In this document: one piece after another, positions 2,948-8,571 of the stretch
How the letters are laid out: every line of letters starts with the position of its first letter
How positions within the stretch are numbered: position 1 is the first letter of the stretch
Virus genome (UHGV): UHGV-0180691
DNA from: a virus
DNA: 40,865 nucleotides
Reading direction: 5' to 3' (one strand)
Made by a program: the position numbers and the translations under genes
The notes under the pieces: model-generated
The model's input: only the letters and a program-made list of their open reading frames with translations
Told to the model about the DNA's origin: nothing
Databases searched by the model: none

Positions 2948-3141
2948 TGGACGGACTCCTGACGAAGATGGTTAATTTCGGCGTCAAGGCTCATTCGCTG
3001 GTCCATCGATTCCGTCAAGGCGGCAAATGTAACGTCCAAGCGAGTGGCTACCTCACGCATCAGAGAGGCTTCTGCTGGTGGCAGTTTCCCCGCCGCAGCA
3101 TGGGCTGCGGCTACCAGTTCTTTTATCTTCATGCGTGGCAT
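2944..3141 (-). CDS. hypothetical small early protein
   Basis: 65 aa ORF with overlapping start/stop to neighbours on the same strand. Confidence 0.35.
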   Translation of the reverse strand: MPRMKIKELVAAAHAAAGKLPPAEASLMREVATRLDVTFAALTESMDQRMSLDAEINHLRQESVQ

Positions 3142-3668
3142 GCGCGTGATTCCATAAGCTCATTGAAACGGTTAATGAACAAGCCATATGCCTGGCCTGG
3201 GCGAAGTGGAACGATCTGGATAATGTCGCTGGCCGGAATACCTTCGAGGCAAGGCCAGAGTGAACCGTCGTCGATATCCAGATCGCGGCGTTCAGTGGCA
3301 AGCATCACCAGATCGGCATATTTCACTACCGCTGACATATCAGAGGTTATGCTGAATTTGGTGCGGATCAGGTCATCAACCATCGTTTCGATGCGTTGAT
3401 AATCCGGCAGAAGTGCTTTGAGAGGAGCAGGGATGTCCTGGCAATACGCTTCGGCCGCGTCATGCATCAGGGCTTCAAAGGCAAACTCTGGCGGCACAAT
3501 TTGGCTGCACAGCACCGAGTGCTGGGCCACGCTGTAAAATTCCGGCAGATGACCAGTGAAGCGGCAGATGTGTGAAAGTGCGGTCGCAATATCCTCGATC
3601 TCCACATCGTCAGCGGTTGAATTGAGGTAATCGAATTTCTTTCCTGAAAGTGTCTGGATATAACTCAT
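3129..3668 (-). CDS. yfdR: HD-domain phosphohydrolase (YfdR-like 5'-deoxynucleotidase family)
   Basis: 179 aa; HD motif context (ALMHDAAEAY) and upstream His (ALSHICRF); size and neighbourhood match the CPS-53-type early-left block. Confidence 0.65.
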   Translation of the reverse strand: MSYIQTLSGKKFDYLNSTADDVEIEDIATALSHICRFTGHLPEFYSVAQHSVLCSQIVPPEFAFEALMHDAAEAYCQDIPAPLKALLPDYQRIETMVDDLIRTKFSITSDMSAVVKYADLVMLATERRDLDIDDGSLWPCLEGIPASDIIQIVPLRPGQAYGLFINRFNELMESRACHA

Positions 3669-3803
3669 CGTCTTTTCTTCTCCATATTTGGCAGCTGCAC
3701 CTGCGCCAGTTTTTGGTTGTACGAATCCCTCGCCATTGGCGATTAATAAAGGGAATTACGCTTCAATAAATCCCCGCGGCGCCGGGGATTTAATGCAGAG
3801 AAA

Positions 3804-4634
3804 TTACGCTTTAAAGTTACCGATAAAGGTTTCAACCGGCTTGTCGGTGAACTTCTCTATCAGCAGGTCACGGAACTCGTTGGCGATAGCTTCTTCCTGG
3901 GCTTCCAGTTGAACGATGCGGAGTACAAACACCGGTTCCCCGCTTTTAAGCAGGCTGTTACGCAGGCTAAAGCGGCGTTCGCCTAGGCCTTCATATGGCA
4001 CGCATTTGAACTCGAAGGCGACAGGCATCACGTCTTTACTGCTGGCTTCAACGCTCTGCATCAGGGACTTTCTGCCGCCAAAATCTTCGTCTTCATGAGC
4101 TGCTTCCGAGACTTGTTTGATATTGACGCGACGAACGGCACCAGCTGCCTGCGCGATGGACAACACATTCCCGTCGGCATCAAATGCGCTCAGGAAGTCG
4201 GCCCAGTCCTCCAGCCATTCAGCAATTTCCTTCTGGCCCAGTCGATCGCCATTTACCTGAAGTAGGGCTCGGAATGGCGCTGTCTTTTTGAGGGTGATAG
4301 ATGCGACGTTATCAGCATGGCCAGGGTTAGCCAGAGTACCGATATTGAACACGGAGCGTGCGGTCATGTTGTCAGCATCGATAAAGCATCGCGCTGGTTC
4401 AGCTTCGTTGGCATAGCCAGCTGCATAACGCACAAAGTCAGGAATGCTGGTTGTGGTCATGGCACCGCGAAAACGAAAACGCTCCAGATCGAAACGCTCA
4501 AGGCTTTCTACGTTTACGCCATCAGGGAGCAGGGCAGTAGGGCATGCTGTTTCTTTAACTGCAGTAAGGTGATAACCGGAAAGAACAAGGTCTTTCACCT
4601 GCTGCAGGGCATTGCCGTCTAAAATCTGGGACAT
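3804..4634 (-). CDS. conserved phage early protein, YfdQ-like (DUF2303-type), function unknown
   Basis: 276 aa; size and position between YfdR-like and YfdP-like ORFs; assignment from memory of prophage CPS-53 gene order, not searched. Confidence 0.5.
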   Translation of the reverse strand: MSQILDGNALQQVKDLVLSGYHLTAVKETACPTALLPDGVNVESLERFDLERFRFRGAMTTTSIPDFVRYAAGYANEAEPARCFIDADNMTARSVFNIGTLANPGHADNVASITLKKTAPFRALLQVNGDRLGQKEIAEWLEDWADFLSAFDADGNVLSIAQAAGAVRRVNIKQVSEAAHEDEDFGGRKSLMQSVEASSKDVMPVAFEFKCVPYEGLGERRFSLRNSLLKSGEPVFVLRIVQLEAQEEAIANEFRDLLIEKFTDKPVETFIGNFKA

Positions 4635-4687: not shown

Positions 4688-5059
4688 TCACTGTGCCGCT
4701 TTAAGCTTTCCGTCAACGCCGCCGTTGATCCCGAACAGCTGCCCCTGATCTTCCTGCAGGATGGTCAGCTTGCCGCCTTTGTTAACCCACATTGGTGTTT
4801 CGGTGGTGTCTTCTTCGGAGGCTTTACCGCGCGGGGTTGGGGTGACGTAGTTCAGCTTGTGCTTGATCTTGACGCGCTTCTCTTCGACGGAGTTACCCAT
4901 ACGCTCAATATCAAAGGTGAGGACTACTTTGCCTTTGGTACCGTTGTTCAGAACGCCAAGCGCGGTAGTGTTTAAAGCTGCCGCGATCTTGTTCATGAAC
5001 ACGCCGGCATCCAGTTCGCCCAGGAAATCGGGCACTACGGTCATGCGGTCATTACTCAT
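4688..5059 (-). CDS. conserved phage early protein, YfdP-like, function unknown
   Basis: 123 aa; position and size consistent with yfdP of CPS-53-like early regions. Confidence 0.45.
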   Translation of the reverse strand: MSNDRMTVVPDFLGELDAGVFMNKIAAALNTTALGVLNNGTKGKVVLTFDIERMGNSVEEKRVKIKHKLNYVTPTPRGKASEEDTTETPMWVNKGGKLTILQEDQGQLFGINGGVDGKLKAAQ

Positions 5060-5268
5060 GGTTTAACCCTCTGTGAGGCGGCTGCCACCGCCAGTGGAAC
5101 TTCTCCATACACAACAGAAAAGGGCACCTGCGCTTCGGCTATGGGTAGGAGGTCCATTTCCATAGCGCCCGGGTGGATTGGGGAATGAGCCCGTCGCCCG
5201 GTGATGCCCTTGTCTCTTGTGTAAAAAAGGTGCCCACCGATGTGATGGGCAAAGACTACACACAGCAA
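5056..5268 (-). CDS. hypothetical small ORF upstream of YfdP-like gene (doubtful)
   Basis: 70 aa; ATGA overlap with downstream gene start but TTG start and overlaps another ORF in a different frame. Confidence 0.2.
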   Translation of the reverse strand: MLCVVFAHHIGGHLFYTRDKGITGRRAHSPIHPGAMEMDLLPIAEAQVPFSVVYGEVPLAVAAASQRVKP

Positions 5269-5684
5269 TGATTTTGTTGTGGCGGTGGTGCCTCCACCTG
5301 CCGGACCGGCCAGAACCGGCGACGCTACACCTCAAGAAACGTATTCATTTCAAAAGTTGAAATAAAAACTTGTTGGCCTCGTCACGTGCGCAGAGCCGCA
5401 TTACCACAACTGGAAGCGCACTCTTTCGGTAACAAACCTGCCCCCGCAGTGAAAGAGAGAAGGAGTGCGCTTTCACGTTGTGCCCTTAAAAAGCTGGCTG
5501 TCACCCTCAAGGGGAAAGTGAGCAGCCAGAACAGGGATCACTTCTTATTGCTTTGGCCTGCTTTTAACCACATCAGGCGCGGTGGTAAGTCATTTGCGAA
5601 TCATCCGGTCATTCATACGCCACCGGCGGCTACTTCGTGGGCTTCCTGCCTGTTCGCTGTTGATGAAAATGAAGATAAAAGATA

Positions 5685-5725
5685 TTTGCGAAATGCGCAA
5701 GAAATAAAATGCGTAAAACGCAATT
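5685..5725. promoter_or_regulatory. putative left operator/promoter (OL/PL) region
   Basis: Motifs TTTGCGAAATGCGCAAG (5685-5701) and ATGCGTAAAACGCAATT (5709-5725) closely match motifs in the cI-cro intergenic region (15 of 17 identical to 6542-6558). Confidence 0.45.
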
Positions 5726-5733
5726 GAAAGGGC

Positions 5734-5766
5734 GTAAAAAAACCGCCGTGTAGGCGGTTATTTGTT
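5734..5766 (-). terminator. rho-independent terminator downstream of repressor gene (possibly bidirectional)
   Basis: Stem AACCGCC / GGCGGTT with 6-nt loop (5741-5760); 7 A on plus strand upstream gives a U-run on the minus-strand transcript. Confidence 0.7.
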
Positions 5767-5777
5767 CTTAGGGGATG

Positions 5778-6473
5778 TTATCCGTGCCGTTTAACTGACT
5801 GCGACTGGCTGATCATTACCTTGCCGAAAACGTAAAATCTGTCTTCATTGGACTTATCCACTGACCACTCCCGATATTTAGGGTTATCGGAAATGACAAG
5901 AATTTTATCTGGGATCATCTGTAATCTTTTGACGTAAATTTTATCATCAAAACCAAAGACATAAATCCCATCACCATCAAACTCATTAATCGAAATATCA
6001 ACGAATATCAAATCACCTGGTTCAATGGTATCAGCCATGCTGTCACCACGAACGTTAATCACTTTGACCGTATCTGGTGTTCTCCCACCAAATAATGCGG
6101 CGGCTCTTTCGTTGTTGTACTCAATGGACCTGATGACATCGACGACATCACTACCTTGTATATGGCCCATGCCAGCACTGGCGCTGACATCGAGCAACTC
6201 GACTCTAAACACAGGGTCACCCTCTCCATAAGCTGGATTTTTACCACTGGATTTACATACAGTATTTTCATTTGGAGATGGTGTAAAGAGTTCTGCCACG
6301 CTGACACCAAGTGCCGTAGCATATTTGCTAAGCGATTGTTCAGTAAATGACTTTTGTTTTCCAGTCTCAACCCGTGAGACGTTCGCACCGTCAATACCTA
6401 CAGCTTCAGCAAGATCTGAAATTTTCATGCCCTTTTCGAGGCGTAATTCTCTAATGCGGTTTCCTATGTTCAT
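5778..6473 (-). CDS. cI: CI-like prophage repressor (N-terminal HTH, C-terminal LexA/S24-like autopeptidase domain)
   Basis: 231 aa; N-terminal HTH (IRELRLEKGMKISDLAEAVGIDGANVSRVETG); C-terminal domain with GDSM and VKRL context typical of S24 Ser/Lys dyad; divergent from cro-like gene. Confidence 0.9.
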   Translation of the reverse strand: MNIGNRIRELRLEKGMKISDLAEAVGIDGANVSRVETGKQKSFTEQSLSKYATALGVSVAELFTPSPNENTVCKSSGKNPAYGEGDPVFRVELLDVSASAGMGHIQGSDVVDVIRSIEYNNERAAALFGGRTPDTVKVINVRGDSMADTIEPGDLIFVDISINEFDGDGIYVFGFDDKIYVKRLQMIPDKILVISDNPKYREWSVDKSNEDRFYVFGKVMISQSQSVKRHG

Positions 6474-6484
6474 GCGTCCATTAC

Positions 6485-6566
6485 AGGTTGTTTTTGCGTG
6501 ATATGCAAAGCAACTTGCGCAAGTCGTAACTACACATTAATATGCGTAATGCGCAATTACAGGGGG
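6485..6566. promoter_or_regulatory. putative right operator region (OR) with divergent PRM/PR promoters
   Basis: Repeated operator-like motifs TTTGCGTGATATGCAAAG (6493-6510), CTTGCGCAAG (6514-6523) and ATGCGTAATGCGCAATT (6542-6558) between divergent cI and cro. Confidence 0.55.
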
Positions 6567-6570
6567 TATT

Positions 6571-6834
6571 ATGCAATCACCGTTAAGAAATTTGCGAAAA
6601 TCGCAAGGTTTGACTCTCTCTCATGTGGCAAACGTGGTGGACATTGATCCAGCCAACCTAAGCCGAATTGAAAGGGGTCAACAAATCGCATCACTCGATG
6701 TAGCTGAAAGGCTTGTGAAGTTTTATTCGGGCCAAATTGATGAGCTCCAAATCTTGTACCCGCACCGTTATACGCAGGCTACAGAAACTGGGGAAGCAAC
6801 GGTACCACAGGAAAAAGGGGAAAGCCGTGGGTAA
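6571..6834 (+). CDS. cro: Cro-like HTH transcriptional regulator
   Basis: 87 aa; HTH (LRKSQGLTLSHVANVVDIDPANLSRIERG); divergent from cI; RBS AGGGGG upstream. Confidence 0.8.
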   Translation: MQSPLRNLRKSQGLTLSHVANVVDIDPANLSRIERGQQIASLDVAERLVKFYSGQIDELQILYPHRYTQATETGEATVPQEKGESRG

Positions 6835-7716: not shown

Positions 7717-8571
7717 ATGAGCACTAAATTAACGGGTTACGTTTGGGACGCTTGTGCCGCTTCTGGCATGAAGCTGTCCAGCGTTGCCATCATGGCGCGT
7801 CTGGCAGACTTCAGCAGTGATGAAGGGGTTAGCTGGCCTTCCATCGCTACCATCGCGCGCCAGATTGGTGCCGGTGAGAGCACGGTTCGCACAGCCATAT
7901 CTCAACTGGAAAAAGACGGGTGGTTAACCCGCCAGCAGCGCCGTAAAGGCAACCGCAATGCATCGAACGTTTACCAGCTCAATGTTGCGAAATTACAGGC
8001 TGCTGCTTTTTCTCACCTGTCAGATTCTGACGCATCAAATTCTGATGCCTCAAAAACCGACGCGTCAAAATCTGAGGCATCAAAAAACGATGAAAAAGGC
8101 GGTTTTCACCCGTCAGAATCTGGGGGGGATCCGTCAGTAAATACAACTACTGATCCATCAGTTAAAAAACCTTTTTGTCCGGTTGCGCCGCAACCAGACC
8201 CTGAAGTGATGATTACCGATAACGCCATCCTGGTTCTGAATCATCTGAACCTGGTTAGCGGCTCACGATACCAAAAATCAAAAACTTCTCTGGAAAACAT
8301 CCGTGCTCGCTTGCGCGAAGGTTACACCGTTGGTGACTTACAACTGGTGATTGACCTTAAGCATGAGCACTGGAACGGCAATGACGTGCAGTACCAGTAC
8401 ATGCGCCCTGAAACGCTATTTGGCCCGAAAAAGTTCGAGGGTTATCTGCAAAGCGGGATCCGTTGGGACAAGAAGGGGCGTCCACCACGTGAAAGCTGGG
8501 GTGAAAAGAAACACGATCCGATGAAGTTCGGTCCGGTTGATACCAAGATTCCAGAGGGGTTCAGAGGATGA
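7717..8571 (+). CDS. replication initiation protein (O-like, N-terminal winged-HTH; conserved phage C-terminal domain)
   Basis: 284 aa; position after cro/cII; internal low-complexity linker encoded by direct repeats (iteron-like) as in lambda O; RBS AAAGGA upstream. Confidence 0.65.
   Translation: MSTKLTGYVWDACAASGMKLSSVAIMARLADFSSDEGVSWPSIATIARQIGAGESTVRTAISQLEKDGWLTRQQRRKGNRNASNVYQLNVAKLQAAAFSHLSDSDASNSDASKTDASKSEASKNDEKGGFHPSESGGDPSVNTTTDPSVKKPFCPVAPQPDPEVMITDNAILVLNHLNLVSGSRYQKSKTSLENIRARLREGYTVGDLQLVIDLKHEHWNGNDVQYQYMRPETLFGPKKFEGYLQSGIRWDKKGRPPRESWGEKKHDPMKFGPVDTKIPEGFRG
8026..8088. repeat. four direct repeats with 15-bp periodicity (core GAYGCNTCAAAA), iteron-like, inside the replication gene
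   Basis: Cores start at 8029, 8044, 8059, 8074; followed by an A-rich stretch; encode the SDASNSDASKTDASKSEASKND linker. Confidence 0.5.

Follow-up and report, generated by a model that had tools for sequence, protein, structure and literature searches.

In the leftward early operon of phage lambda, transcription from pL meets the internal terminators tL1, tL2, and tL3, with tI/sib lying after int, and polymerase gets past these terminators with the help of N at the nut sites. Hairpins between cistrons are also known to stabilize RNA, as described for the REP between malE and malF in Escherichia coli and for the hairpins of the puf operon in Rhodobacter. Here we analyzed a GC-rich hairpin, HP1, that follows a yfdQ-like gene in a lambdoid phage genome of 40,865 nucleotides (the whole stretch of DNA analyzed, referred to below as the window), and we found that it shares properties with both kinds of element. 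Like the lambda pL terminators, HP1 is a sense-strand stem-loop within a leftward early operon, positioned between an early gene and the genes toward xis and int, and polymerase would be expected to read through it in part or in full, setting proximal versus distal expression. In contrast to lambda, phage LLS, a relative of the window, is without an N homologue, and the U-tract of HP1 is much weaker than those of typical lambda terminators. HP1 also differs from lambda sib in that its extended RNase III-type stem is only 63% paired in relatives; we rejected an RNase III or sib-type site, which would call for a nearly unbroken duplex of about 20 bp upon read-through, on this ground, as pairing in 55 relatives is only 62.9% for the nine pairs that would lengthen the HP1 stem. 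Like the malE-malF REP and the puf hairpins, HP1 stands directly after the upstream cistron, and the upstream segment is the more common one (3.5-fold in prophage ST64B); unlike REP, it is not dispersed and does not resemble the REP consensus. HP1 is an ordinary kind of element, an intra-operon terminator or stabilizer hairpin.

Over the region around HP1, the window is 94 to 96% identical to Escherichia phages Flotzy, LLS (95%), and Eeyore and 73 to 77% identical to Salmonella ST64B, Citrobacter phiNP, and Klebsiella Kp4866-6. The product of the yfdQ-like gene (Table 1) has homologues in E. coli relatives that are annotated "YfdQ family protein," and it matches PDB entry 9o7m, "YfdQ Protein" (E = 2.5e-40), whose 36 chains of a single sequence suggest that YfdQ is a large homo-oligomer; we did not find a paper describing this structure in the literature. 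Homologues of the yfdR-like gene in relatives are annotated as HD hydrolase or 5'-deoxynucleotidase YfdR, and its product matches PDB 2gz4 (E = 7e-12) and has no Pfam or NCBIfam match; NCBIfam holds nothing for YfdP, YfdQ, or YfdR. Between these two genes lies the largest noncoding gap in an otherwise tightly packed gene run, and the first-pass annotation of the window had correctly given it as 135 bp between co-oriented YfdQ-like and YfdR-like genes, leaving unstated that both are on the minus strand. The same annotation had assigned the gap to an early-left operon, and we agree with this placement. Repeated TTGCG-N5-CGCAA palindromes flank the cI-like gene and are probably the left and right operators; they place a leftward early promoter (putative pL) beside cI, so that "early-left operon" is a fair description, and the same genes make up the early-left operon of LLS, which has been described as lambdoid (Zheng et al., PMC12315714).

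The LLS study reports no N homologue in that phage and proposes put-type RNA antitermination (PMC12315714), and a Q-like antiterminator is the only antiterminator listed in the Flotzy annotation, which together fit an operon carrying internal terminators. On the minus strand between putative pL and yfdP, within a small annotated ORF, UGCCCAUCACAUCGGUGGGCA and the CCUUUUUUAC that comes after it form a hairpin that looks like a canonical terminator, and at the equivalent place ST64B carries a hairpin that is larger and is joined to a T-run. This arrangement implies a need for antitermination in early-left transcription. Another hairpin, with T-runs on both strands, stands directly after cI. The leftward leader also contains an inverted repeat whose 17-nt arms are 88% complementary and separated by 31 nt, and a search by inverted repeats for a put-like partner of this leader in the rightward operon gave nothing convincing. 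In ST64B, the leftward leader (about 5215 to 5288, minus strand) is the source of the noncoding RNA STnc1310, for which published Salmonella RNA-seq shows high expression; its end is CUGGCGG...CCGCCAGCUUUUU, so it is a terminated leader transcript. The leader of the window shows only patchy similarity. On the other side of cI, a cluster of overlapping palindromic iteron-like repeats of the CAGATTCTGA/TCAGAATCTG family lies inside a gene annotated in relatives as encoding a primosomal or O-like protein, and this cluster is probably the replication origin. A scan for tRNA and tmRNA genes found none.

Table 1. Positions in the window of HP1, its neighbors in the spacer, and other features of the operon and its surroundings
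Feature	Position	Strand	Description
Integrase gene	720-1883	minus	after excisionase
Excisionase gene	1844-2062	minus	end of overlapping or abutting run
3'-5' exonuclease gene	2085-2657	minus	in overlapping or abutting run after yfdR
yfdR-like gene	3129-3668	minus	179 aa; first of overlapping run toward exonuclease and excisionase
Gap yfdQ-yfdR	3669-3803		non-coding; minus-strand genes on either side
yfdR Shine-Dalgarno	3683-3680	minus	GGAG
HP3	3690-3706	minus	5-bp stem with one bulge; loop GUGCAG (3700-3695)
Conserved stretch after HP2	3722-3729	minus	GGGAUUCG
HP2	3730-3742	minus	UCGCC-AAU-GGCGA
30-aa ORF	3744-3836	minus	over the hairpin; annotated in Flotzy and Eeyore
Conserved single-stranded block	3751-3766	minus	UUGAAGCGUAAUUCCC; after HP1
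Direct repeat, 10 nt, exact	3754-3763 and 3802-3811		AATTACGCTT; flanks HP1; one copy is the yfdQ end including the stop codon
U-rich stretch	3764-3771	minus	AUUUAUUG; overlaps base of HP1 3' arm; candidate U-tract
HP1	3767-3792	minus	5' arm 3792-3783, loop 3782-3777, 3' arm 3776-3767 (RNA)
yfdQ-like gene	3804-4634	minus	276 aa; DUF2303; Pfam PF10065 (E = 4e-63); HP1 is part of its 3' end
yfdP-like gene	4688-5059	minus	
Terminator-like hairpin	5231-5251	minus	between putative pL and yfdP
Inverted repeat	5411-5475		in leftward leader
Putative pL	near 5670-5700		leftward
Operator-like palindromes	5683-5732 and 6514-6607		TTGCG-N5-CGCAA, repeated; flank cI-like gene
Hairpin after cI	5741-5759		T-runs on both strands
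cI-like repressor gene	5778-6473	minus	
Gene for primosomal or O-like protein	7717-8571		annotation from relatives
Iteron-like cluster	8020-8122		overlapping palindromic repeats

The RNA of HP1 reads UAAAUCCCCG-GCGCCG-CGGGGAUUUA, with 10 perfect pairs, 5 of them G-C, around a 6-nt loop, and it starts 11 nt past the stop codon of the yfdQ-like gene (TAA, 3806 to 3804). On the plus strand this corresponds to AATCCCCG at 3769 to 3776, cggcgc at 3777 to 3782, and CGGGGATT at 3783 to 3790, which is the hairpin quoted, at the same place, in the first-pass annotation; the stem is even longer than was described there, with positions 3767 to 3776 pairing with 3783 to 3792. The minus (transcribed) strand folds at -14.1 kcal/mol (z = -2.24; 7 of 200 shuffles were equally good), and the plus strand folds at -13.1 kcal/mol (z = -1.61). 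HP1 is the sole perfect inverted repeat of at least 9 bp with a loop of 3 to 8 nt in the 40.9-kb window, and dinucleotide shuffles contain a mean of 1.04 such repeats per window, with at least one 10-bp hairpin in 22% of the shuffled windows. HP1 alone is therefore statistically unexceptional, and its reality rests on position and conservation. It has the form of a terminator-type stem-loop, which we took as about 5 to 14 bp with a loop of 3 to 8 nt, on the transcribed strand and after a gene. Rfam 15 gave no matches at the gathering score across the whole window, and matches between 3600 and 3900 at E values up to 10 were at chance level (E of at least 1.7).

For conservation, we sampled 80 IMG/VR and 80 GTDB genome loci that encode yfdQ/DUF2303 homologues, down to 38% protein identity, a set that spans Enterobacterales to Pseudomonas and Marinobacter. 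Each of the 107 distinct 70-nt stretches that follow the yfdQ/DUF2303 stop codon holds a single hairpin at or below -10.8 kcal/mol (median, -16.7 kcal/mol), compared with 21% of the shuffled sequences and 22% of the coding controls at this threshold. These downstream stretches contain 83 different hairpin sequences, with arms such as AAAUCCCCG/CGGGGAUUU, AAUUGCCC/GGGCAAUU, and AAUAACCCCG/CGGGGUUAUU, as well as AAAUGCCCC/GGGGCAUUU in E. coli K-12 CPS-53, AAAUGCCAC/GUGGCAUUU in Proteus, and GCGCCCC/GGGGCGC in Marinobacter. A covariance model was then built from 28 representatives; 56 spacers were aligned with it (alignment A4), and 55 distinct sequences were scored. Across these 55 relatives, 100% of the HP1 cells are paired, and double-sided (compensatory) changes are seen in 5 of the 9 aligned pairs (AU to UA in 20, GC to CG or AU in 14, and CG to GC in 10), with the caveats that a fitted alignment is biased toward the structure and that the sequences share ancestry. 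The three-helix structure of the spacer (HP1 to HP3) exceeded all of 500 shuffles by each of five measures, and its pairing fell from 98% to 42 to 51% when the partner was slid by 1 to 3 columns. RNAalifold recovered HP1 on a plain MAFFT alignment as well as on the model-fitted one.

The pattern of substitutions also distinguishes between strands. Across the alignment, 28 cells of the HP1 stem are G·U and none is A·C, so the selected fold is that of the sense RNA and neither duplex DNA nor antisense RNA. The loops of relatives are 3 to 8 nt long and differ in sequence as well as length, with the stems intact; even near-identical relatives have the loops GCGCCG, GCGCCA, GCGCUG, GCUCCG, GGCCG, and GUGCCG, along with others, and among them the stem is altered once, to a wobble. 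The HP1 loop behaves neutrally, and HP1 itself is real, with none of the relatives that we examined lacking it.

In IMG/VR, at least 120 contigs carry the exact stem pattern, and the listed matches all stand immediately downstream of yfdQ or of what is left of its 3' end; with a single copy in the window, this led us to reject a dispersed REP or BIME palindrome. The hairpin follows yfdQ whether the next gene is yfdR, ssb, or an unrelated gene, the loci in which ssb comes after yfdQ and the hairpin (L146 and L160) being from Proteus and Kistimonas. In contrast, where yfdR stands behind a gene other than yfdQ, there is no HP1 (L329 and L351) or a different hairpin (L009 and L355). Some prophages (L009, 3032 to 3121) carry rdgC in place of yfdQ before yfdR, with its own different hairpin. 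Since the hairpin travels with yfdQ and is missing before yfdR where yfdQ is absent, we regard HP1 as a 3' appendage of the yfdQ cistron.

As a terminator, HP1 is borderline. Intrinsic terminators typically have an unbroken tract of at least 5 to 6 U's in 8 nt directly 3' of the stem. The U-tract of HP1 has 5 U's in 8 nt, is interrupted by A, and is partly paired; the tail is the U-rich stretch of Table 1 if the stem opens at its A-U base and UUGAAGCG after the full stem. The two U's at the 3' base of the stem (alignment columns 43 and 44) are nearly invariant (55 of 55 and 53 of 55) and almost never swap to the 5' side, while the inner pairs flip freely. A consensus terminator scan did not call HP1. 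A d'Aubenton-Carafa-type score was +0.3 on the sense strand and -17 on the antisense strand, with +21 for the terminator after cI; the formula was run with modern ViennaRNA energies, so the zero point of these scores is approximate, and the visually canonical hairpin at 5251 to 5231 scored -32. The sense score was higher than the antisense score in 88% of homologues, and scores above 0 were found for 36% of homologues on sense versus 6% on antisense, with 64% below 0 on sense. Tails of the form AAUUAGUG occur in about 20 of 55 homologues and in about a third of enterobacterial relatives, and Morganella homologues have a canonical terminator at the HP1 place (GGCGGCAUUUUUAUAUU), whereas the U-tract is wholly absent from the Pseudomonas and Marinobacter hairpins. 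Given that most homologues score below 0 and that the U-tract is absent in some lineages, termination is not obviously the conserved property, and HP1 is at best a weak, leaky terminator. A consensus promoter scan of the gap gave no minus-strand sigma-70-like site, and inspection of the conserved spacer by eye gave no acceptable -35/-10 pair.

The hairpin and U-tract of ST64B are identical to those of the window, and TPM values for this prophage in S. Typhimurium D23580 have been published for 17 conditions (Owen et al. 2020, PMC7067206, Table S5). By matching lengths and gap, we identified STMMW_20261 (828 bp) and STMMW_20271 ("yfdR," 540 bp), which are 136 bp apart, as yfdQ and yfdR, corresponding to sb36, sb35, and the spacer of the ST64B reference. 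At the level of whole genes, the yfdQ/yfdR TPM ratio had a median of 3.5 and ranged from 2.4 to 7.0, with yfdQ the higher in each of the 17 conditions. The first-pass annotation had named equal coverage of the two genes as the outcome that would count against its proposal, and this was not seen. The next six gene-to-gene ratios, down to int, had medians close to 1, at 0.75 to 1.24 over the 17 conditions and of 0.76 to 1.53 in the higher-expression conditions. We also found a yfdP/yfdQ ratio of about 5 across an unstructured gap (-1.9 to -3.1 kcal/mol), so gene-level TPM cannot pin the yfdQ/yfdR step on the hairpin. In the four clearly expressing conditions, successive steps were about 5-, 3-, 2-, and then 1-fold, induced conditions showed a 1.6- to 2.3-fold drop after yfdR, and distal genes were near background in uninduced conditions; the steps in ST64B could also be a proximal gradient. 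The hairpin sits at the 3' end of the more abundant segment (~3.5-fold), as a stabilizer would, but a similar drop occurs at a hairpin-free gap. The earlier proposal of an attenuator or RNA stability element is partly borne out: a conserved sense-RNA structure and unequal RNA in ST64B favor it, while the U-tract is weak and the drop is seen at an unstructured gap as well.

On balance, and with moderate confidence, we favor the reading that HP1 works as a leaky intrinsic terminator and, in addition, shields the 3' end of the released yfdP-yfdQ RNA. RNA polymerase would transcribe leftward from the promoter beside cI and past the yfdQ stop codon, and 11 nt beyond it the GC-rich stem would form, followed by the interrupted U-tract AUUUAUUG, where a fraction of the polymerases would release, making HP1 an attenuator. 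The released RNA would end in a stable hairpin that could resist 3'-to-5' exonucleases, and the other polymerases would continue into the yfdR leader with HP2 and HP3 and on through the overlapping genes to xis and int. The net result would be more yfdP-yfdQ message than downstream message, with HP1 as one of several internal signals in the operon. The structure of HP1, its strand, its conservation, its linkage to yfdQ, and the difference in RNA on its two sides in a relative were observed directly, and we infer termination at HP1, its efficiency, and the protection from decay. The conservation of the block after HP1 (GAAGCGUAAUU; columns 48 to 56 of alignment A4 are 90 to 100% conserved) counts against the leaky-terminator model, which does not explain it.

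The main rival to this model is that HP1 acts as an exonuclease barrier only, a reading that we consider possible but doubt. Polymerase would not stop at the hairpin; instead, the operon RNA would be cut or would decay from downstream, HP1 would block PNPase and RNase II, and the yfdP-yfdQ segment would outlive the rest. A barrier is consistent with a hairpin that is kept in all lineages when the U-tract is not (64% of homologues below 0, and none in Pseudomonas and Marinobacter), with the tie of the hairpin to yfdQ and not to the following gene, and with an RNA step in ST64B that is partial, at about 3.5-fold; the 36 YfdQ chains in PDB 9o7m also hint at a large assembly, maybe one needing many copies. 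However, a pure barrier would need neither the sense-over-antisense asymmetry of the terminator scores nor the near-invariant U's on the 3' side, and a canonical terminator occupies the HP1 position in Morganella.

Where the first-pass annotation had described a single hairpin in the gap, we found HP1 as described and, downstream of it, two more conserved, covarying hairpins that had been missed. HP2 is 99.6% paired, with double changes in 2 of 5 pairs (CG to UA in 8 sequences, giving UUGCC/GGCAA, and GC to AU in E. coli K-12, giving UCACC/GGUGA), and it was recovered by RNAalifold on alignment A4. It follows HP1 also at loci where the next gene is not yfdR (L124, L129, L136, and L139 to L141). 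HP3, which lies 6 nt upstream of the yfdR Shine-Dalgarno sequence, is 92.7% paired, covaries in 5 of 5 pairs, and has stem variants that include GCGCG/CGCGC, CGCAG/CUGCG, and GCGCU/AGCGC around a nearly invariant loop; HP3 stays with yfdR even where a gene other than yfdQ comes before it, at loci that lack HP1 and HP2. Two further candidates were rejected: pairing of the HP3 loop GUGCAG with CUGCAU upstream of HP1, which is possible in the window but not conserved in other lineages, and a 23-codon ORF starting from an AUG in the HP2 loop, an AUG that is missing from relatives.

The same element, with equal order and spacing, is found in the yfdQ-yfdR spacer of E. coli K-12 CPS-53 (KplE1), where HP1 is AAAUGCCCC-UGC-GGGGGCAUUU, HP2 is UCACC-GGAU-GGUGA, and the HP3 loop is again GUGCAG. 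Its stems differ from those of the window by compensatory changes, and the direct repeat that flanks HP1 in the window is absent. From E. coli K-12 CPS-53 to prophages of Kosakonia, Rahnella, and Sodalis, the spacer has three covarying hairpins, the conserved single-stranded blocks GAAGCGUAAUU, GGGAUUCG, and CAACCAAAA, and the GUGCAG loop, and we found no published description of it in the literature on yfdQ, yfdR, DUF2303, and ST64B sRNAs. The HP2/HP3 leader of yfdR, which has no match in Rfam and a single copy in the window, is a good candidate for an undescribed cis-regulatory motif. More tentatively, the 127-nt spacer as a whole (3680 to 3806, minus strand) might be an undescribed structured RNA motif, a cis-regulatory switch that gates YfdR expression by protein binding, processing, or translational control, with HP1 as its transcriptional gate; we regard this as conceivable and hold it with limited confidence. 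YfdR has been described as a DnaA-binding protein, and the overexpressed gene cluster blocks replication initiation (PMC4776307).

We consider it unlikely that HP1 is itself one domain of a larger cis-regulatory RNA (HP1-HP2-HP3, 3680 to 3806) that would act on the translation of yfdR, on RNA processing, or on how far polymerase travels, perhaps in the manner of a nut or put site or by binding a phage protein. In its favor, the three helices covary, GGGAUUCG, CAACCAAAA, and the GUGCAG loop are kept across proteins only 55% identical (K-12 CPS-53), an Rfam match is absent, and put-type antitermination is suspected in this phage group (PMC12315714). Like lambda nut and HK022 put, HP1 is a GC-rich hairpin of an early operon and is preceded by a stretch that includes GCUCU (UUUCUCUGCAU, or UGCUCUGCAU in relatives). 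Unlike nut, in which boxB has a fixed pentaloop, HP1 has a loop that is free in sequence and length, and neutral in both, and the upstream stretch does not match boxA (CGCUCUUA). We therefore rejected a lambda-type nut site (boxA-boxB), both on these freely varying loops of 3 to 8 nt and on the N homologue not being reported for the 95%-identical phage LLS. Unlike put, a two-stem RNA located near pL and pR in both early operons, the HP1 site is about 1.9 kb from putative pL and has no second copy, and the covariance model of the spacer found one site only in the window, with no partner in the rightward operon. In addition, HP1 is found alone after yfdQ, HP1 and HP2 are found without HP3, and HP3 is found alone before yfdR, and this separability of the three hairpins in nature argues against one obligatory RNA machine.

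A feature acting at the level of DNA, whether a palindromic protein site, a junction for recombination between modules, or the scar of a hairpin-cassette insertion, is very improbable. The exact 10-nt direct repeat that flanks HP1 is expected only 0.08 times per window, the core of the conserved block after HP1 repeating the last 10 nt of the yfdQ end, and it may be an insertion or duplication scar; mosaic boundaries are also seen between HP1, HP2, and HP3. However, the 28 G·U and 0 A·C cells show selection on the sense RNA fold and not on DNA symmetry, the K-12 lineage has the hairpin without the direct repeat, and the stem pattern is not dispersed, its listed IMG/VR matches (at least 120) all following yfdQ.

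The 30-aa ORF annotated over the hairpin in Flotzy and Eeyore is unannotated in LLS, ST64B, and RefSeq E. coli and is almost certainly spurious, because loop lengths of 3 to 8 nt would shift any frame. That HP1 has no function, being either a chance inverted repeat of the kind present in 22% of shuffled windows or a piece of this small ORF, is scarcely credible and is already contradicted by the compensatory changes and by a structure kept in every relative.

None of these results would be surprising to phage or RNA specialists. For annotation, they mean that HP1 would mark a real transcript boundary or attenuation point in the early-left operon of a widespread lambdoid group that includes ST64B, phiNP, LLS, and E. 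coli K-12 CPS-53. In the HP2/HP3 leader, they also provide a covariation-supported candidate cis-regulatory motif that is present in E. coli K-12 and easily testable. For the biology of these phages and prophages, the results suggest that more YfdP and YfdQ is produced than YfdR and products of the excision genes, which fits both the deposition of YfdQ as a 36-chain assembly and the harm caused by overexpressing the YfdR cluster.
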